The notes beneath the pieces are model-generated. The model saw only the letters and a program-made list of their open reading frames with translations, had not been told where the DNA came from and made no database searches. From a bacterium (GTDB taxonomy: Bacteria; Zhuqueibacterota; Zhuqueibacteria; Residuimicrobiales; Krinioviventaceae), in assembly GCA_963674595.2 (NCBI GenBank), contig CAXXFV010000027.1, positions 64,001 to 128,000 on the forward strand: a stretch of DNA of 64,000 nt, given 5' to 3'. Positions 20,754 to 27,752 of this stretch are shown here, piece by piece. How positions within the stretch are numbered: position 1 is the stretch's first letter; each line of letters opens with the position of its first letter. The translations under genes were made by a program, and so were the position numbers.

Positions 20754-22168
<1,415 letters not shown>

Positions 22169-22231: not shown

Positions 22232-23371
22232 CTATTCTGCCACTTTTATTAAAAGTTGTTTAATGAGTTTTGCCTGTTTAAATTCCTCGTCTTCAATTCC
22301 AAGTTTTTTCAACAATGGTGGTGGCGCCAGTCGATATGTCAATGTCGTTTCCAGATAAACGACATTAGAATCCGGTATCAAGTATGTTAAGAGCCGTTTT
22401 TCATCTGGAAGCAGGCGTTGGTCAAATTTTTCCGTAACAGCTTCCCAGGGGGGAACCGGGGCATCACCGTTTTCATTTGCCAAAAGTTTCATAAATATTG
22501 CCTGGGGATCTTCTTTTATTGGATTGATATAGTAATTTTTCCAGACCGGATTTTTGTCAGCATCCTGCGCTTCAATATTAAAAATTACCATTCGCATCGG
22601 AGAACCGGTCGGCAGAGCATGCCCAACAGCGTGATTTTGAATTTCGACCGCCACATCCAAAAGACTGTCTTTTCGTACATACTTAACTTTAATGTCGGCG
22701 CAATTGGTTAAAATTTCATCTGAATAACCGCCAAAAAAGGAATGAGAATGGATTTCATCTCGGACTTTACCCAATGGTGCAGCTTTGCCTTCTTTGGAGG
22801 GCATGTGGCAATCCTGACAGGAAACACCCTGTCTGGCAAAACGGCTGTTCTCCCATTCTGATTTTGTTGAACAAAAGGAAATACCATGAGGATTTTTTTC
22901 ATTACCATGACAGGTAAAACAAAATTCCGAAGTCGTTATACTTGCCGAGAATTCAGATTCATGCACATTTGAAATAGGATCTTTAATTGGCCCGTATTTT
23001 AAATTACCGGGACCAAGTTGAATCCAGTCATAGTTATCCACAACAGCTAGTTGTGTTGCATGGCAAATATCACAGCTAACGCCCTGTTCAAAAACCGCTC
23101 TTGTTTGCTCCGTATCCGGAATCAAAGTTCTGGCAGGTTCATGACATTTACGACAGGTTTCATCCAGAGAATTTTGGGATGATTTATTGGCCCAGTCAAG
23201 CATTTTTTGGAAAAATACATTCTGTGCTTCGGATGAATGTGCATGGCGAGAACTTTTCCACTCGGTATATATTTGTTGATGACAATCACTGCACTCTTCC
23301 GCCGGACTAATTGTTTGAGACCACCCATTTTGAATAAATAAAGTTAATACCAGGAAAAAATAATTTCTCAT
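22232..23371 (-). CDS. Exported pentaheme c-type cytochrome (c554-like N-terminus)
   Basis: Five CxxCH motifs (CSDCH, CRKCH, CDICH, CFTCH, CQDCH), signal peptide, GHALPTG. Confidence 0.9.
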   Translation of the reverse strand: MRNYFFLVLTLFIQNGWSQTISPAEECSDCHQQIYTEWKSSRHAHSSEAQNVFFQKMLDWANKSSQNSLDETCRKCHEPARTLIPDTEQTRAVFEQGVSCDICHATQLAVVDNYDWIQLGPGNLKYGPIKDPISNVHESEFSASITTSEFCFTCHGNEKNPHGISFCSTKSEWENSRFARQGVSCQDCHMPSKEGKAAPLGKVRDEIHSHSFFGGYSDEILTNCADIKVKYVRKDSLLDVAVEIQNHAVGHALPTGSPMRMVIFNIEAQDADKNPVWKNYYINPIKEDPQAIFMKLLANENGDAPVPPWEAVTEKFDQRLLPDEKRLLTYLIPDSNVVYLETTLTYRLAPPPLLKKLGIEDEEFKQAKLIKQLLIKVAE

Positions 23372-23568
23372 TCTTTCTCCTTGTTAACTTTTTTCTTGCC
23401 CCCTCCTACTGTTAAAATAAAACCAATAACAGCACCATAGCCTGTGCTGATATAACCATTAGATGTAATCGGACACGTACCGGATTGACAGCCGATAAAA
23501 TGATAATAGGCGTATCCCAATAAAGCTCCAATGACAATGCCGAGAGCTAATTTCAAATATTTATTCAT
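23368..23568 (-). CDS. DUF6132-type small membrane protein
   Basis: Two TM helices flanking GCQSGTCPITS; ATGA overlap with the cytochrome gene. Confidence 0.85.
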   Translation of the reverse strand: MNKYLKLALGIVIGALLGYAYYHFIGCQSGTCPITSNGYISTGYGAVIGFILTVGGGKKKVNKEKE

Positions 23569-23580
23569 ATATTACCTTTC

Positions 23581-24936
23581 TTACCTGCTGGCAACACTGG
23601 CAGCAATATGTATTGGGTCCCACATATTGTTAACAGCAGGCGTATATCCTAAATCAAGTTGTGCTAAATCATTTACAGTCATCTTTGCCGTAACGGCAGT
23701 GGCTAATATATTAATTCGTTGAGCAGCTTCCACTTTACCGCATATTTGTGCTCCCAAAACTTTATTTGATTTTTTATCATAAACCAACGTCAACGTCGTT
23801 TTTGAATCAGTATTCCCGATAAAAGGCGGACGGGCGTTTTGTGTTATTGTAACCTGTTCCGGAGAAAATCCGGAATCTTTGGCCTGATTGAACGACAATC
23901 CTGTTTTACCGACTTCCATGTCAAACAATCTGACCATTGACGTAGCAACAGAACCATTAAAAATTGAACGTTCACCGGCCGCATTACCTCCGGCAACCCG
24001 ACCTTGCCGTGCTGCAACACCGGCAAAAGGAATCCATTGGTTCTGACTGGTTACGATATTAGTTGTTTCACAACAATCACCGGCCGCATAAACATTCATG
24101 CGTTTTGTTTCCTGGTTTTTGTTAACGATAATAGCGCCGCCAGGACCCATTGGAATGCCCGCTTTTTTAGCAAGTTCCGTGTTTGGTTGCATGCCGGCAG
24201 CCAGAATCAAAACATCACATTCGACCTGCTGCTGATCCTCAAAATTTAATTGTCGAACGGAATTATTTTGTATTGCTGCATTAACTATTTTTTTGTTTAA
24301 CAGGATGTTAATACCGGAATTTTTCAAATGTTCAAAAATGTTATCCGCAATTTCTTTGGAAAAACCATCCAAAATCGAGTCTTTTTGTTCTATAACCGTT
24401 ACCTGCAATCCCCGATTGAGTAACGCTTCTGCAATTTCCAGTCCCAGATACCCACTGCCGACAATAACAGCTTTGCGGGGTTGTTTATTTAAAAAGGAAT
24501 TGAGATGTTCCGCGTCAGCAAAATTTCGAACAGTAAACATGTTGGCAGCATTTTCCGGGAAAACAGACGGAATAACAGGAACAGCACCGGTTGCAAAAAT
24601 CAATTTGTCATACTGATAGCTGTCAACACTGCCTGATGTCAAATTTTCAACCAGCACAGTCCGTTTAACAAGGCTAACTTCTTTTACACTGGAAGACAAA
24701 AGGACGTCATAGCCTCTTTTTTGTTTAACCGATTGAACATCATACCCGGAAACCTTGTCGGCTGAAAGCTGATTTGCCAGATAAAAAGGCAAACTACAGG
24801 AAGCATAACCAAAATGAGGTGATTTTTCTATGACAGTAACCTCGGCATCAGGATTAATACGTTTTGCTTTCCCGGCAGCAGCCAAACCGGCATCATTACC
24901 GCCTATAATCAATATTCTTTGTCGTTTTTTATACAA
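23581..24936 (-). CDS. CoA-disulfide reductase / NADH oxidase family flavoprotein
   Basis: IIGGNDAG, redox Cys in YASCSLP, ATGA, GSGYLGLE, YAAGDC, DLGYTP. Confidence 0.88.
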   Translation of the reverse strand: MYKKRQRILIIGGNDAGLAAAGKAKRINPDAEVTVIEKSPHFGYASCSLPFYLANQLSADKVSGYDVQSVKQKRGYDVLLSSSVKEVSLVKRTVLVENLTSGSVDSYQYDKLIFATGAVPVIPSVFPENAANMFTVRNFADAEHLNSFLNKQPRKAVIVGSGYLGLEIAEALLNRGLQVTVIEQKDSILDGFSKEIADNIFEHLKNSGINILLNKKIVNAAIQNNSVRQLNFEDQQQVECDVLILAAGMQPNTELAKKAGIPMGPGGAIIVNKNQETKRMNVYAAGDCCETTNIVTSQNQWIPFAGVAARQGRVAGGNAAGERSIFNGSVATSMVRLFDMEVGKTGLSFNQAKDSGFSPEQVTITQNARPPFIGNTDSKTTLTLVYDKKSNKVLGAQICGKVEAAQRINILATAVTAKMTVNDLAQLDLGYTPAVNNMWDPIHIAASVASR

Positions 24937-24969
24937 TGTTTACTCTCACAACTAAGCTTAATAAACCAG

Positions 24970-25000
24970 AAAAAGGCAAGTAACACATATTACTTGCCTT
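24970..25000 (-). terminator. Intrinsic terminator downstream of the FmdB gene
   Basis: Perfect 11-bp stem AAGGCAAGTAA/TTACTTGCCTT ending in a T tract on the minus strand. Confidence 0.75.
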
Positions 25001-25068
25001 GCAAAAATATAAATATGGGGAATTAGAATCAAGCTAAAAATAAAGACATACAGTCTTTTTTATATTCC

Positions 25069-25284
25069 TCAGCCAAATCCGCTTGTTCCGCAACTGCCAC
25101 CGGACGAACCAGAAGAAACTGAAGCACTTCCTCCACTACCGCCTGATGCAAAAGCTGAAAATATTTTCTCGGGTTTTGCCGCACCACAAGCAGGGCAATT
25201 CAAGTTTGTTCCATCTTCACCAACCCGTTGAAAACTATCGAAAATATGCTGACACTCTATACATCGGTACTCATATATGGGCAT
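25069..25284 (-). CDS. FmdB-family zinc ribbon protein; the terminal TGA may be Sec, extending the gene to 25060
   Basis: MPIYEYRCIEC..CPACG, Gly/Ser tail SCGTSGFG then TGA GGA ATA TAA. Confidence 0.9.
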   Translation of the reverse strand: MPIYEYRCIECQHIFDSFQRVGEDGTNLNCPACGAAKPEKIFSAFASGGSGGSASVSSGSSGGSCGTSGFG

Positions 25285-25286
25285 TT

Positions 25287-25457
25287 TTACTCTTTCTCCT
25301 TTTCTGAATCTAAATCCTGTACTTTATTTTTTTTCTTATCTTCACCCGGAAGATCACATGCACCGGACATTCAAGTAGGCACCCCAAATTTGGGTAAAAC
25401 AAATTTCATTAAAACAAACCACGCAATAAAAATTAATATTATACCTAGATTGTCCAT
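25287..25457 (-). CDS. Candidate small membrane selenoprotein (56 aa, Sec29; not in the ORF track)
   Basis: AAGGA RBS and ATG at 25457; MDNLGIILIFIAWFVLMKFVLPKFGVPT-TGA-MSGACDLPGEDKKKNKVQDLDSEKEKE-TAA; stop lies 2 nt before the FmdB ATG. Confidence 0.7.
25338..25354 (-). other. Candidate bacterial SECIS hairpin
   Basis: ATCTTC-CGGGT-GAAGAT; 22 nt between the UGA and the loop, with G at loop position 2. Confidence 0.55.
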
Positions 25458-25518
25458 TCTGGTTCCTTGATATTTTTCATGTCCATTTATATTTTGATGC
25501 AATTAAAGGAAAAAGTAT

Positions 25519-26412
25519 TCAAAAAAGTTCAAAATTTTCATTATTTCCGACAGATTGCATGTGAGCAAGAGAGGGATAAAATCTTTTTAAATGGGCAGGC
25601 ACTATAGGAGGTTGCTGATAAAGCATTTCCTGGCATTCAAAACCATTAACAATGGCTTGTCCTTTAAAATGATTGTTAAAAACGACAAATGTTTGATTTG
25701 TTGTATTAGAAATTTCCCGGATGTTAGTTATCCAGTCTGTCATTTCATCTTTATTGTATAAATAATTATAACGTTCATCACGCCCGCTTTTTTCGTTAAA
25801 CCAGTTGGAATAGTTGCGTCCATGTAGTCTAACGTAACCGATATCAGAAGTGACGATTTTATCAGGTTTTACAGATTTACCGATGACAGGCTGATCAACA
25901 TTGACAAAACCTATTTTTTGTGACTCTAAGTATTTATAGATTTTTGAATCATTCCAGCTTGAATGCCGAAACTCCACGACCAGGGGAAAGTCAAATTGAT
26001 TTCGGATATTATCTATTTTTTCCAAAGAAGTTTTATTATTTTTAAAACTCCAGGGAAATTGCACCAAAACAGCCCCTAGTAAATTTGCTTTAGTCAGGAT
26101 AGAAAATATAATTTGAAAATCCTGAACATCAGATTCAGTCGGCTTTTCATTAGAATGAGTAAATTTTTGCCACAATTTGACTGTAAATTTAAACCGGTCG
26201 CTTCCTTTTACCAATGACACCCATCTTTCAATGGTCCCCGGATCAATTTTTCGATAAAAGGTAGAGTTAATTTCTACAAGATTAAAATAGTCCTTGAGAA
26301 ATTGCAGCTCGTTAAAATTTTTGGATCTTTTGGGAGGATAAACAATTCCATTCCAGTCTTTATAACTCCAGCCTGCCGGTCCGATATAAATATTTGATTT
26401 TTCGTCGCTCAT
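25519..26412 (-). CDS. DUF72 family protein
   Basis: IGPAGWSY, VEINSTFY, LVQFP, VEFRH, YVRLHGRN, FNNH. Confidence 0.92.
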   Translation of the reverse strand: MSDEKSNIYIGPAGWSYKDWNGIVYPPKRSKNFNELQFLKDYFNLVEINSTFYRKIDPGTIERWVSLVKGSDRFKFTVKLWQKFTHSNEKPTESDVQDFQIIFSILTKANLLGAVLVQFPWSFKNNKTSLEKIDNIRNQFDFPLVVEFRHSSWNDSKIYKYLESQKIGFVNVDQPVIGKSVKPDKIVTSDIGYVRLHGRNYSNWFNEKSGRDERYNYLYNKDEMTDWITNIREISNTTNQTFVVFNNHFKGQAIVNGFECQEMLYQQPPIVPAHLKRFYPSLAHMQSVGNNENFELF

Positions 26413-27680
26413 TAGATAAATATATCAATACCGCACAAAATGTTAAAACGGGAATGTTTCAGTTCGACCTTTGTATTTGCTATATCAAATGGTAACTCAT
26501 CTGTCTGATATTGAAGTATTTGATACCTTAATGCAATATTTATTGAAAATGAAGATTTAACAAGTCCCACTCCCGTTGTTATAAAATGGGATGAAACCTG
26601 CTTGCCCCGGTCAAGATTATCATTGTCAGTCGGCTCAAATATTTGCTCCAGTTGAGAAAGAAATCCGAATCGATAAGGCAACAAGTAGCTTTTTTTACGG
26701 ATTGTATATTCCACACCCATTCGAAATGAATTTGCTTTTTCAAAAATCCGATCTGTTTTTTGCTCGTCTATACTGACAACAGCTTTATGCAACGGCTTTT
26801 GCTGAAAATCAAACACAAAGATAAAGTCAGACATTAGTTGAACAGATAATCCATAGGAGACTTGCAAAGGCATTTCGATATAAGGCTCAATATCATACTC
26901 TGTAACGTTATTGTCCGAATCTTTAAAATTTATTTTTGAATAATAAAGTTTGTAGGGAAACGAAACTTTACTGCCCAAGGAAAACACGCGTGATATTTTT
27001 AATAAAACGCCGGCATCCACAGAAAAACCGGAAAACTTGTTTTCCCAGTTGGATGAATTTTTAGAAACAGCCTCATCTTCATAATCCGTATAATTGTCGT
27101 TTTTTTTATAATTACCGGTGATAAAATTCAACGATGAACCGATATATAAATTTTTAAACAAACAATACCCGAACCCGCCAGACAGGGAATAAATACCTCC
27201 ATTGTACTTTTCTTCTATTTCCCTTTCAAATTGGGTGGTTTCATCCAGTCGGGACCAGGTAATATTATTATTAAAATTACTCATCTGTTTAACAGCGAGT
27301 GCAAATGTTAACGGATTGTTCTTTAGCGGAACAGGAATTGTAAAACCGATAAAAGACAAACCTATATTTCCGTTTATCCGGGCTTTAAATTTTTGGTCCA
27401 GTGAAAGTAAGGTCGGTGTTTTTATTGCAAGGTTACCAAATCCAATATTTGACAAGAGTGTAAATGTTGTTTTTGAATTTTGTGCCAATCCGGCAGGATT
27501 CCAAACAAGTGCCTCTGCATTATCAGCTAATCCGGTGTAAGCATTTCCCATTCCTGCAGCCCGAATACCGGCAGGTGGTTCATTAAATATAATCGGACTA
27601 ATGGAAAATGGTTCGTCCTTACTTTGAGCAGCAACAACAGCAAGTAACAGAATGATAAGAGCAAATCGTAAATGTTTCAT
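26412..27680 (-). CDS. FadL/PorV-like outer-membrane beta-barrel protein
   Basis: Signal peptide; RAAGMGNAYTGLADNAEALVWNPAGLA; alternating strands and terminal GIDIFI. Confidence 0.8.
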   Translation of the reverse strand: MKHLRFALIILLLAVVAAQSKDEPFSISPIIFNEPPAGIRAAGMGNAYTGLADNAEALVWNPAGLAQNSKTTFTLLSNIGFGNLAIKTPTLLSLDQKFKARINGNIGLSFIGFTIPVPLKNNPLTFALAVKQMSNFNNNITWSRLDETTQFEREIEEKYNGGIYSLSGGFGYCLFKNLYIGSSLNFITGNYKKNDNYTDYEDEAVSKNSSNWENKFSGFSVDAGVLLKISRVFSLGSKVSFPYKLYYSKINFKDSDNNVTEYDIEPYIEMPLQVSYGLSVQLMSDFIFVFDFQQKPLHKAVVSIDEQKTDRIFEKANSFRMGVEYTIRKKSYLLPYRFGFLSQLEQIFEPTDNDNLDRGKQVSSHFITTGVGLVKSSFSINIALRYQILQYQTDELPFDIANTKVELKHSRFNILCGIDIFI

Positions 27681-27752
27681 AAAATTCAGATATCCGGTAA
27701 AATTATAAAAAGAATGGGAGAATGAAATCATTCGCCCATTCAAGTGGTATAT

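Follow-up and report, generated by a model that had tools for sequence, protein, structure and literature searches.

A small gene with an in-frame TGA very probably encodes a single-pass membrane selenoprotein of an unnamed bacterial family

In a window of 64,000 nucleotides (the whole stretch of DNA that was analysed, from contig CAXXFV010000027.1), positions 25287 to 25457 of the minus strand very probably constitute a genuine selenocysteine (Sec)-encoding gene. The selenoprotein reading of this segment, proposed in an earlier note made from the letters of the DNA, is supported by homologues carrying TGA or Cys, by conservation downstream of the TGA, by a covarying hairpin and by the Sec machinery of the genome. 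Taken as a whole, the locus is explained best, and with good confidence, by a 56-residue single-pass membrane selenoprotein with SECIS-driven recoding and a presumptive thiol/selenol role. The gene and its parts are laid out as follows:

25287-25457, minus strand: coding sequence of the 56-residue putative selenoprotein, with ATG at 25455-25457 and stop codon TAA at 25287-25289, as read from the sequence and its translation with TGA as U
25464-25468, minus strand: Shine-Dalgarno-like AAGGA, 6 nt 5' of the ATG
25395-25448, minus strand: transmembrane (TM) helix, residues ~4-21 (LGIILIFIAWFVLMKFVL), with W13 invariant
25371-25373, minus strand: TGA read as selenocysteine (residue 29), a codon conserved in relatives and in class loci
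25356-25394, minus strand: juxtamembrane motif P22-K-F-G25-V-P27-T28-U29-M30-S31-G-A-C34, conserved in the alignments A2 and A4
25338-25354, minus strand: SECIS-like hairpin AUCUUC/CGGGU/GAAGAU, inside codons 35-40 (DLPGED), with covariation

The ORF thus runs MDNLGIILIFIAWFVLMKFVLPKFGVPT-TGA(25371-25373)-MSGACDLPGEDKKKNKVQDLDSEKEKE-TAA(25287-25289), and every detail that had been described for it (ribosome-binding site, ATG at 25457, hydrophobic helix, TGA, MSGAC, charged tail, TAA and hairpin) was confirmed on the minus strand. Its TAA lies 2 nt ahead of the ATG, at 25284, of a gene for an FmdB-family protein. ORF calling with Table 11 divides the same ground between one ORF of 43 aa, begun at a TTG further upstream, and another of 27 aa. 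The TGA also stands in independent assemblies: contigs built from four sequencing runs, each belonging to a different study, are unchanged at 25371-25373, although one run (X1) is possibly the origin of the present assembly. The differences within the ORF among these contigs amount to three, one conservative (L8V) and two synonymous. RNA and metatranscriptome runs contained at most 0.08 of the sampled words of the stretch.

The same layout was found in the orthologues of 36 of 40 relatives, and in 35 of them the TGA lies inside the match, with homology extending beyond it. Start codon and TGA are separated by a constant distance of 28 codons, and in most orthologues GGAG or AGGA stands 6-9 nt 5' of the aligned start. 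As had been predicted, position 29 of the homologues is either TGA or Cys: among the 37 extracted loci, 36 have TGA at the aligned codon and one (L057) has TGC. Class-wide, 98 of 125 searched genomes contained a match to the peptide and 27 did not; the TGA fell within the match in 96 of the 98, and codon 29 was TGA in all 20 further class loci, which came from ten more families. Deviations were few: one class genome (G075) carries TAA at the Sec codon, with no matching hairpin, G055 has Tyr in place of Cys34, and G101 and G102 show U-x5-C spacing. The machinery for Sec incorporation, which the earlier note had suggested looking for, was found in full, with selA, selB, selD and tRNA-Sec (selC) each scoring above the curated cut-off; the selD gene of this genome carries an in-frame TGA of its own.

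Conservation continues past the TGA at the level of the protein. In alignments A2 (n = 36; 35 Sec forms plus the Cys form L057) and A4 (n = 42), residues P22, G25, T28, U/C29 and C34 are invariant, and in A2 at least 90% of the sequences also keep M30 and S31, so that the x-S-G-x-C stretch expected after the TGA is indeed retained among homologues. The codons of conserved residues downstream of the TGA vary synonymously (TGT/TGC; TCC/TCG/TCT/TCA/AGC). The family consensus thus begins with an N-terminal TM helix, continues with the motif P-x-x-G-[VI]-P-T-[U/C]-M-S-G-x-C and closes with a tail of charged residues.

Homologues with Cys at the position of the TGA, which number in the hundreds among distant sequences, are single continuous ORFs, whether in L057, a close relative in the class, or elsewhere (for instance 14 loci in other phyla and 80 metagenome loci). 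A word-index search with the read-through protein gave no match; a protein profile search that used no word index found the family, with 646 representative clusters at E<=1e-3. When 60 library sequences were read, 47 had Cys, 10 had W or G, and 3 ended at the TGA. The ten W/G entries look like code 4 or 25 calls on metagenome contigs and hence like mistranslated TGA codons, and most of them retain the Sec-form-like, SECIS-encoding tail. Together with library fragments of 28-29 aa ending in ...GVPT, they bear out the expectation that annotation pipelines truncate or drop this gene. In two natural fusions the peptide module is joined to thioredoxin. Three Thermomicrobium loci (L075-L077) matched the pattern and were set aside as chance matches because the helix is missing. 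Judging from the loci recovered, the Sec form predominates in one bacterial class and Cys forms in several other phyla.

Bacterial SECIS elements, as modelled in bSECISearch, are stem-loops just 3' of the UGA, with roughly 16-37 nt between UGA and apical loop and a G among the first loop positions. The hairpin of the peptide gene agrees with this description, since its loop begins 22 nt past the A of the UGA and has G at position 2; among orthologues the loop reads CGGGU or GGN. It had been suggested that the hairpin would be conserved, and it is retained among homologues with covariation. In 55 sequences, pair 22-34 is CG in 38 and GC in 11, pair 21-35 is UA in 33 and CG in 12, and pair 25-31 is CG in 43 and UA in 9. 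The covariation score over the same 55 sequences was 0.407, against 0.188 +/- 0.016 after shuffling (none of 500 shuffles reached 0.407) and no more than 0.196 for slid pairings; covariation was also found on a set of 35 sequences. The compensatory changes in the stem alter the encoded residues on both arms (P becoming S where E becomes K, for example), and conservation of DLPxED is limited to the Sec forms, not extending to the Cys forms. It is this comparison with other genomes, and not the fold of a single sequence, that places the hairpin beyond chance, as the 71-nt stretch folded alone was nothing special (z = 0.12 versus shuffles). At a single core column (pairs 21-35 to 25-31), up to 7 of the 55 sequences are unpaired, and in L186, L191, L193 and L194 the hairpin region, inspected by eye, folds elsewhere. 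An Rfam scan of 24000-27000 (E<=10) left both the gene and the hairpin unmatched; its one hit, weak and irrelevant, was to Esr41 (E 0.66; 24966-25030), some 260 nt downstream of the peptide stop.

The gene immediately downstream has a TGA near its end:

25060-25284, minus strand: FmdB-family zinc ribbon (Pfam PF09723, TIGR02605) with a Gly/Ser-rich tail
25042-25058, minus strand: hairpin AAAGAC/UGUAU/GUCUUU, a candidate 3' SECIS past the FmdB TGA
24973-25000, minus strand: hairpin resembling a terminator, with a run of T; in this genome it closes the peptide-FmdB unit

Its reading frame closes with GFG-TGA(25069-25071)-GGA-ATA-TAA(25060-25062), and FmdB, too, is probably a selenoprotein, its Sec being the antepenultimate residue. 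Of 32 FmdB orthologues, 29 end in TGA, two codons and a stop, and the 3' hairpin, which is separate from that at 24973-25000, forms a consensus helix across 30 sequences, with compensatory changes. Sec has been placed in FmdB-family proteins (TIGR02605) before, within a CxxU motif in the part of the GOS study that we draw on (PMC2398784) and as an entry 'UxxU, 2 Sec' in Table 1 of a 2026 review (PMC13188914). In 13 of the 29 orthologues the tail reads U-x-x-TGA, which fits the latter entry as far as its description goes; the other 16 have TAA or TAG as the second stop, unlike the CxxU site in that part of the GOS report (PMC2398784), and for this reason we describe the pattern as Sec-x-x-stop with a 3' hairpin. 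FmdB adjoins the Sec-form peptide gene in 34 of 37 loci and in 16 of the 20 further class loci, and it is missing from all 95 Cys-form loci examined, namely the one in the class and 94 elsewhere.

Such a distribution, the 2-nt gap between the two genes and the apparent need of FmdB itself for Sec would all suit a selenium-sensing leader, in which Sec-tRNA-dependent decoding of the UGA controls FmdB translation and the peptide has no job of its own. We regard it as quite unlikely that this is the chief function of the ORF, for the motif is conserved as protein and the Cys form persists in other phyla without FmdB, in other operons and in thioredoxin fusions, which a mere leader would hardly do. 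A leader role and a function of the peptide are not mutually exclusive.

A true stop at the TGA, with a TM peptide of 28 residues ending there and translation re-initiating at the adjoining ATG (UGAAUG coupling) to give a second peptide of 27 residues, would account for the ATG that directly follows the TGA here and in most orthologues, for the high conservation of M30, for the 27-aa ORF of Table 11 and for the 28-29-aa truncated library entries. It is nevertheless very improbable. The continuous Cys ORFs read ...PT-C-M-SG-C..., so that M30 is an internal residue, and in several Sec forms codon 30 is CTT, CTC, CTG, GTG, GTT or GCA, of which CTT, CTC, GTT and GCA are non-start codons; moreover, the covariation of the hairpin is bought with amino-acid changes, as would be expected of a SECIS. 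Reading of the TGA as Trp, Gly or Cys, through a near-cognate tRNA or an alternative code, could be argued from the database entries with W or G at this position, and the chances of it appear minimal: these residues are confined to the ten entries taken above as TGA mistranslations, homologues otherwise carry Cys, TGA also terminates ordinary genes in this genome, which has the full Sec machinery, and plain readthrough would leave a covarying hairpin at SECIS distance with no role. That the segment between DUF72 and FmdB is no gene at all and only a conserved intergenic RNA or regulatory element, as its shortness, lack of a named family and escape from standard ORF logic might suggest, is scarcely credible given the 646 protein clusters that fit the profile, the occurrence of the family in unrelated gene contexts, the constant start-TGA distance, the ribosome-binding sites and the synonymous variation at conserved residues.

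Taking the gene, then, as one for a membrane selenoprotein, the charge bias in A2 predicts an N-out, C-in topology: over the 36 proteins, the N-terminal stub holds no K/R and 33 D/E, and the 12 residues ahead of Sec hold 71 K/R and no D/E. The Sec29/Cys34 pair is accordingly predicted, from this distribution, to sit at the cytoplasmic face of the membrane. Further genes of the neighbourhood are:

25519-26412, minus strand: DUF72 gene (Pfam PF01904), upstream of the peptide gene
23581-24936, minus strand: CoA-disulfide-reductase (CoADR)-like flavoprotein (Pfam; TIGR03385), a Cys form with ...GYASCSLPFY...
23368-23568, minus strand: DUF6132 two-helix membrane protein (Pfam PF19628) with G-C-Q-S-G-T-C-P
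22232-23371, minus strand: secreted pentahaem cytochrome c with five CxxCH motifs, distantly ExtKL/MccSep-like

In 24 of 37 loci, DUF72 lies upstream of the peptide gene; the flanks of many loci are short. The CoADR-like flavoprotein scores 374.7 bits against TIGR03385, under the cut-off of 578.8; its gene follows FmdB in 10 of 37 loci, and 7 of 80 metagenome loci have a CoADR-like gene directly after the Cys-form peptide gene. DUF6132 is a neighbour of Sec and Cys forms alike (26/37 loci, 6/20 class loci, 5/14 distant Cys-form loci and 14/80 metagenome loci). The cytochrome, present in 14 of 37 loci, reaches 74 bits against NF040886, under the cut-off of 250; an MccSep-like TGA readthrough was ruled out for it, as the gene ends at TAA with no open continuation. 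Around the Cys forms we saw the order MBL-rhodanese (persulfide dioxygenase-rhodanese), peptide gene, TauE, and a DsbD_TM-thioredoxin gene directly downstream of the peptide gene in 13 of the 80 metagenome loci. None of the tested neighbours occurred in 44 of these 80 loci, many of which are just 1-2 kb long, and at four distant loci the flanking genes (Lon, GH31, PGK and ClpB) bear no relation to them.

From the recurrent neighbours (FmdB, DUF6132, the CoADR-like flavoprotein, MBL-rhodanese/TauE and DsbD_TM-thioredoxin) and the thioredoxin fusions, we infer a functional role: the Sec/Cys pair likely performs thiol/selenol redox or sulfur-transfer chemistry. The same gene neighbourhood hints, more tentatively, at sulfane sulfur specifically as the substrate. 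In the mechanism that we propose, codon 29 UGA would be recoded to selenocysteine by the host SelB and tRNA-Sec, with the short hairpin in codons 35-40 as the signal, and the helix would insert N-out/C-in, which would bring the Sec29/Cys34 pair to the cytoplasmic face. The selenolate would then attack a disulfide or a sulfane-sulfur (persulfide/polysulfide) substrate, Cys34 would resolve the adduct to yield a selenenylsulfide, and a soluble partner, which may be FmdB with its near-C-terminal Sec, the CoADR-like flavoprotein or a thioredoxin, would re-reduce it.

Since FmdB adjoins the Sec forms so regularly and none of the Cys-form loci, one may go further and imagine peptide and FmdB as a dedicated two-selenoprotein relay, a selenol/thiol wire across the membrane that would serve sulfur respiration or detoxification, although we consider this unlikely. 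The flexible Gly/Ser arm of FmdB, ending in Sec-x-x-COOH, would carry reducing equivalents or sulfane sulfur as an Se-Se or Se-S bond and would link the soluble CoADR-like flavoprotein to the membrane-anchored Sec29/Cys34, from which they would pass to the DUF6132 Cys pair in the membrane and on to a periplasmic ExtKL/MccSep-like polysulfide-reducing cytochrome. The wire, if real, would be made of three very small proteins.

Selenoprotein inventories underpin estimates of selenium use by anaerobic, sulfur-cycling bacteria, and the present family, which occurs in about four-fifths of the sampled genomes of the class, is missing from them. Pfam, NCBIfam and, to judge by its main text, the 2026 catalogue have overlooked it because the gene is tiny and split at the UGA. 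It would add a rare type, the bacterial single-pass membrane selenoprotein, and it points, beside persulfide, polysulfide and thiol-redox enzymes, to a conserved small-protein module (the peptide, FmdB with a putative near-C-terminal Sec, and DUF6132) that places two domains of unknown function in a context open to experiment. As current annotation leaves 28-residue stubs or W/G mistranslations, the present alignment could seed a corrective family model.

In family searches, the Sec form had no match in Pfam (E<=10), in NCBIfam release 20 or with PADLOC. Among ten Cys forms compared with Pfam and NCBIfam, the TM-motif module was likewise unmatched and only the thioredoxin domains of the two fusions were recognised; one Cys form tested with PADLOC gave no match. 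A sequence-profile match in the PDB to a vasopressin receptor (E >= 0.1) was discarded as TM-helix noise. With regard to the FeoB-associated Cys-rich small membrane proteins, the peptide is unmatched in Pfam (E<=10) and the Cys forms returned nothing relevant (E<=1).

The closest counterparts in architecture are SELENOK and SELENOS, which are small, are anchored by one TM helix at the N-terminus and have a cytosolic tail, charged or disordered, that carries a single Sec thought to be redox-active at the membrane surface. The likeness is one of architecture only, Pfam showing no sequence relation of the peptide at E<=10, and it has its limits: in the peptide Sec stands ~8 residues past the helix, with Cys at +5, in contrast to a Sec near the C-terminus in SELENOK/SELENOS, and the SECIS is a bacterial hairpin in the coding region instead of a 3'-UTR element. 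DUF6132 resembles the peptide in having [C/U]-x-[ST]-G-x-C directly after a TM helix, its own version being G-C-x-[ST]-G-x-C-P. Homology between the two is unsupported (no Pfam match at E<=10; hhalign probabilities of 1.9% and 6%), no Sec form occurs among 26 aligned DUF6132 sequences, and, as DUF6132 has two helices, the prediction for its Cys pair is a position within the membrane or on the opposite face. The YeeE/YedE (PF04143) thiosulfate-transporter family, for which a Sec form with the motif GUxSG has been predicted (PMC13188914), resembles the peptide in its membrane location, its [C/U]-x-S-G motif and its setting in sulfur handling. A YeeE-like half protein of this genome has G-C-T-S-G, and the genes lie elsewhere in the genome; YeeE/YedE differs, however, in being a multi-helix transporter, and the likeness is confined to a motif of four residues.

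[quoted passage not shown] Our literature search likewise returned no description of the family; the deep-Sep, BSepDB, Olavius, GOS and PMC8318568 supplements lay outside its scope and might list it as 'hypothetical protein'. Overall, the peptide represents an unnamed large family, new to Pfam, to NCBIfam and, according to its main text, to the 2026 catalogue, and it is akin to the 119 families gathered there (PMC13188914) in being read as a bacterial selenoprotein that depends on UGA and a SECIS, has homologues with Cys and pairs Sec with Cys.

The peptide gene lies on the minus strand of the window, where its layout exactly matches the one described in the earlier note (RBS, ATG, TGA, MSGAC, TAA and hairpin). 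The features are as follows.

25287-25457, minus strand: peptide ORF with the TGA read through, from start ATG 25455-25457 to stop TAA 25287-25289
6 nt 5' of ATG 25455-25457, minus strand: AAGGA in the Shine-Dalgarno position
25371-25373, minus strand: in-frame TGA, codon 29 of the peptide ORF
25338-25354, minus strand: hairpin AUCUUC/CGGGU/GAAGAU, its loop beginning 22 nt past the UGA
24973-25000, minus strand: terminator-like hairpin between FmdB and the CoADR-like gene

The ORF, present as a single copy in the assembly, reads MDNLGIILIFIAWFVLMKFVLPKFGVPT, TGA 25371-25373, MSGACDLPGEDKKKNKVQDLDSEKEKE, TAA 25287-25289, and an FmdB-type zinc-ribbon gene starts 2 nt beyond this TAA; translation with table 11 splits the stretch into a 43-aa and a 27-aa ORF. 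A 71-nt stretch taken alone folded on a par with shuffled sequence (z = 0.12) and an Rfam scan gave no match on the peptide-gene stretch; the case for recoding must therefore rest on cross-genome comparison.

The Sec machinery, which the earlier note had proposed to look for, was found in the assembly (37 contigs, 97.6% complete): selA (574 bits), selB (354 bits), selD (389 bits; an in-frame TGA occurs in this gene as well) and tRNA-Sec (65.9 bits) all score above curated cut-offs. A six-frame search detected the read-through protein in 36 of 40 relatives, 35 of which showed one TGA within the match and homology extending beyond it, while one genome (G009) had no stop within the match. Of 37 extracted loci, 36 had TGA at the aligned Sec codon and the remaining one, L057 (the Cys form in the class), had TGC; in most a start codon stood 28 codons 5' of the TGA, usually preceded by a GGAG-like site. 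Searching 125 genomes of the class with a profile from 36 aligned proteins (35 Sec forms and L057; E<=1e-3) gave matches in 98, with TGA inside the match in 96, none in G009 and only TAA in G075. Elsewhere in the phylum 2 of 42 genomes matched, both with TGA, and TGA occupied the Sec codon in 20 of 20 more loci, which sampled ten additional families of the class. Position 29 of the homologues holds what the earlier note had named, TGA in nearly all class loci and Cys in L057 and distant loci. The codon itself was, as that note had suggested verifying, unaltered in the contigs of four sequencing runs, which come from four studies and may include the assembly's source; across these runs the ORF showed three differences (L8V and two synonymous Lys codons). 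There are exceptions: in G075 (L078, G075:C54:21300-21800) the Sec codon is replaced by TAA, MNPDAC comes next and no matching hairpin is present, so that it is probably a decaying or decayed copy; in G055 Tyr replaces Cys34; G101 and G102 have U-x5-C spacing. At E<=1e-3 the profile found no match in 27 of the 125 class genomes, several of them incomplete and others at least 95% complete.

The hairpin predicted past the TGA is likewise conserved. Pairs were tallied on ungapped alignments beginning at the UGA, with columns 19-26 set against columns 30-37.

Base pairs in the helix, by number of sequences aligned (n = 55, across the class)
Pair 22-34, n = 35: CG 35/35
Pair 23-33, n = 35: UA 32, CG 3
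Pair 24-32, n = 35: UA 27, CG 7, UG 1
Pair 25-31, n = 35: CG 30, UA 5
Pair 21-35, n = 55: UA 33, CG 12, UG 2, GC 1
Pair 22-34, n = 55: CG 38, GC 11
Pair 24-32, n = 55: UA 44, CG 8, UG 1
Pair 25-31, n = 55: CG 43, UA 9, GC 2

Pairs 22-34 to 25-31 were unbroken in 35/35 sequences. The covariation score (n = 55) was 0.407; shuffles gave 0.188 +/- 0.016, and none of the 500 attained it. Double-sided changes filled 60 cells where 18 were expected. Kinship among sequences can outscore shuffles without any structure, but six slid-pairing controls, which retain the relatedness, scored at most 0.196, so that this explanation is disfavoured. Because the compensatory changes alter amino acids on both arms (e.g., P to S with E to K; L to P), and because the stem-encoded DLPxED is conserved in the Sec forms only, the Cys forms having no consensus there, selection at the hairpin is, as judged from the alignments, acting on the RNA. 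The loops are GGN or CGGGU. Within the core (pairs 21-35 to 25-31) a column can have as many as 7 of 55 sequences unpaired, and four (L186, L191, L193 and L194) fold, by eye, elsewhere nearby.

Protein-level conservation also continues past the TGA, as the earlier note had anticipated for xSGxC: W13, P22, G25, T28, U29 and C34 are invariant in the 36 proteins, conservation reaches 90% or more at P27, M30 and S31, and the conserved residues 3' of the UGA have synonymously varying codons (Cys TGT/TGC; Ser TCC/TCG/TCT/TCA/AGC). Cys homologues are unbroken single ORFs (...G-[VI]-P-T-C-M-S-G-x-C...), found within the family (L057), in 14 loci of MAGs labelled Deltaproteobacteria, Polyangia, Acidobacteriia/Bryobacterales, Planctomycetes, Chloroflexota and Cyanobacteriota, and in 80 metagenome loci. 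That the UGA is a stop followed by re-initiation at the adjacent ATG, giving two peptides, is very improbable, since M30 is an internal residue of the Cys forms and several Sec forms have CTT, CTC, CTG, GTG, GTT or GCA at codon 30, of which CTT, CTC, GTT and GCA are not starts. Three Thermomicrobium matches lacked the helix, look like chance and were rejected. A profile search of 1.84 billion protein-library representatives returned 646 clusters at E<=1e-3, of which 34 reached E<=1e-10. In 60 sequences from the 646-cluster result, the Sec site held Cys in 47, W in 8 and G in 2; the W and G entries, most with a tail like that of the Sec forms, appear to be TGA translated under codes 4 or 25. 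The other 3 are stubs of 28-29 residues ending ...GV[PSG]T, the truncation at GVPT that had been forecast. Misannotated public predicted proteins (W or G at the Sec site, or ending ...GV[PSG]T) are P0003, P0007, P0018, P0024, P0027, P0045, P0138, P0148, P0025, P0080, P0129, P0131 and P0132.

Cross-genome comparison thereby identifies a small membrane protein, almost certainly UGA/SECIS-recoded, with an invariant Sec/Cys...Cys pair. The Sec form belongs to no family in Pfam, NCBIfam release 20 or PADLOC, nor do seven Cys forms and the TM-motif module of fusion proteins in Pfam or NCBIfam, and no relative was found among solved structures. In the 36 aligned proteins the N-terminal stub contains 0 K/R vs 33 D/E, and the 12 residues preceding Sec contain 71 K/R vs 0 D/E. 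As the positive-inside rule relates charge bias to helix orientation, the helix is predicted to lie N-out/C-in, so that Sec29 and Cys34 would face the cytoplasm at the membrane surface. In two library proteins (P0075 and P0141) a fused thioredoxin domain follows the TM helix and C-M-S-G-x-C module at the C-terminus.

The minus-strand order in the window is DUF72, peptide gene, FmdB, terminator-like hairpin, CoA-disulfide-reductase-like (CoADR-like) flavoprotein (TIGR03385 at 374.7 bits, under cut-off), DUF6132 and a secreted pentahaem cytochrome c (22232-23371, minus). The best NCBIfam model for the latter is ExtKL multihaem (seleno)protein (74 bits vs a cut-off of 250), and its gene ends at TAA, without TGA read-through; a preprint (bioRxiv 10.1101/2025.11.18.688581) identifies the ExtKL/MccSep family as a polysulfide reductase, an activity reported for its MccSep member.

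Neighbours of the peptide gene in the 37 loci (flanks of only ~500 nt in 17/37)
FmdB, directly downstream: 34/37
DUF6132: 26/37
DUF72: 24/37
Cytochrome: 14/37
CoADR-like: 10/37

Of the 20 additional loci from across the class, 16 had FmdB after the peptide gene and 6 had DUF6132 before it. A 443-residue protein upstream of DUF72 (26412-27743, minus), kept there in eight relatives' loci, has no Pfam match and weakly matches BamG and PorV/PorQ outer-membrane beta-barrel models. On the plus strand (20754-22168), the reading frame of a GltD/SudA-like oxidoreductase (Fer4_20 + Pyr_redox_2) is broken: two ORFs that overlap in different frames cover it, and the shift, near a G run (~21475-21480) between the GTGA and MRIPGE motifs, reflects either a real frameshift or a fault in the assembly.

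FmdB was beside none of the Cys-form genes (0/14 genome loci, 0/80 metagenome loci and absent at L057; 0/95 in total), which showed three layouts. The first is DUF6132, peptide gene and a DsbD_TM-thioredoxin fusion (metagenome loci: DUF6132 in 14/80, DsbD-Trx in 13/80), with a sigma-54/GAF activator upstream in L062, L063 and L100. In the second (7/80) a CoADR-like gene directly follows the peptide gene; in four of these (L101, L103, L105 and L115) a rhodanese domain comes next, an order that we take to resemble CoA-persulfide-reductase-type enzymes. The third, seen also in L070, L072 and L073, comprises rhodanese/YgaP, an MBL-fold protein with two rhodanese domains (a persulfide-dioxygenase-type fusion), peptide gene, TauE/SafE and a Pyr_redox_2 enzyme (metagenome loci: PDO-rhodanese 10/80, TauE 6/80, rhodanese 15/80). 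At least one neighbour from these layouts occurs in 36/80 metagenome loci; of the remaining 44, most span 1-2 kb and others lie among unrelated genes, as L061, L065, L066 and L069 do.

We consider it likely that the peptide carries out redox or sulfur-transfer chemistry in general; that its substrate is specifically sulfane sulfur is a more tentative proposal, a little short of an even chance. A selenol/thiol centre on the inner membrane face would act on disulfides or sulfane sulfur, with FmdB, the CoADR-like enzyme or thioredoxin as its possible recycling partner.

The adjacent FmdB protein is probably a second selenoprotein, whose Sec would be the third residue from the C-terminus. The window gene (25042-25284 including its hairpin, minus) ends GFG-TGA-GGA-ATA-TAA. 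In 32/32 orthologues located by pattern within L024-L060 the first stop is TGA, followed in 29 by exactly two conserved codons (G-I/V/F, A-S or A-H) and a second stop (TAA or TAG in 16, TGA in 13). This ending is followed by a hairpin that carries G in the loop, is separate from the terminator at 24973-25000 and shows compensatory changes across 30 aligned sequences.

Table 1 of a 2026 review (PMC13188914) lists 119 selenoprotein families/subfamilies, and none of its rows is a small TM protein or has a U-x4-C motif. Nothing resembling the peptide family came up in term searches of the main texts of deep-Sep, BSepDB, the Olavius paper, the GOS paper (PMC2398784) and PMC8318568, and further literature text searches yielded no description of it; the NCBIfam library scanned takes in the Tso-family models of Haft & Tolstoy. 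The peptide thus represents a new selenoprotein family, which may sit in a supplementary list, main texts having been compared. It resembles DUF6132, where G-C-x-[ST]-G-x-C-P directly follows the first helix with a spacing equal to that of U-M-S-G-A-C; homology was not supported by profile comparison (probability 6%). A YeeE/YedE-like half protein of the same genome (L168, G000:C23:5630-6097) carries G-C-T-S-G, with the C-x-S-G core of the peptide and DUF6132, a likeness at motif level only. As for FmdB, the 'UxxU, 2 Sec' entry in the review's Table 1 may be the same ending read through a second TGA, whereas the CxxU Sec site given for FmdB in the GOS paper differs from the TGA, two codons and stop of the window gene.
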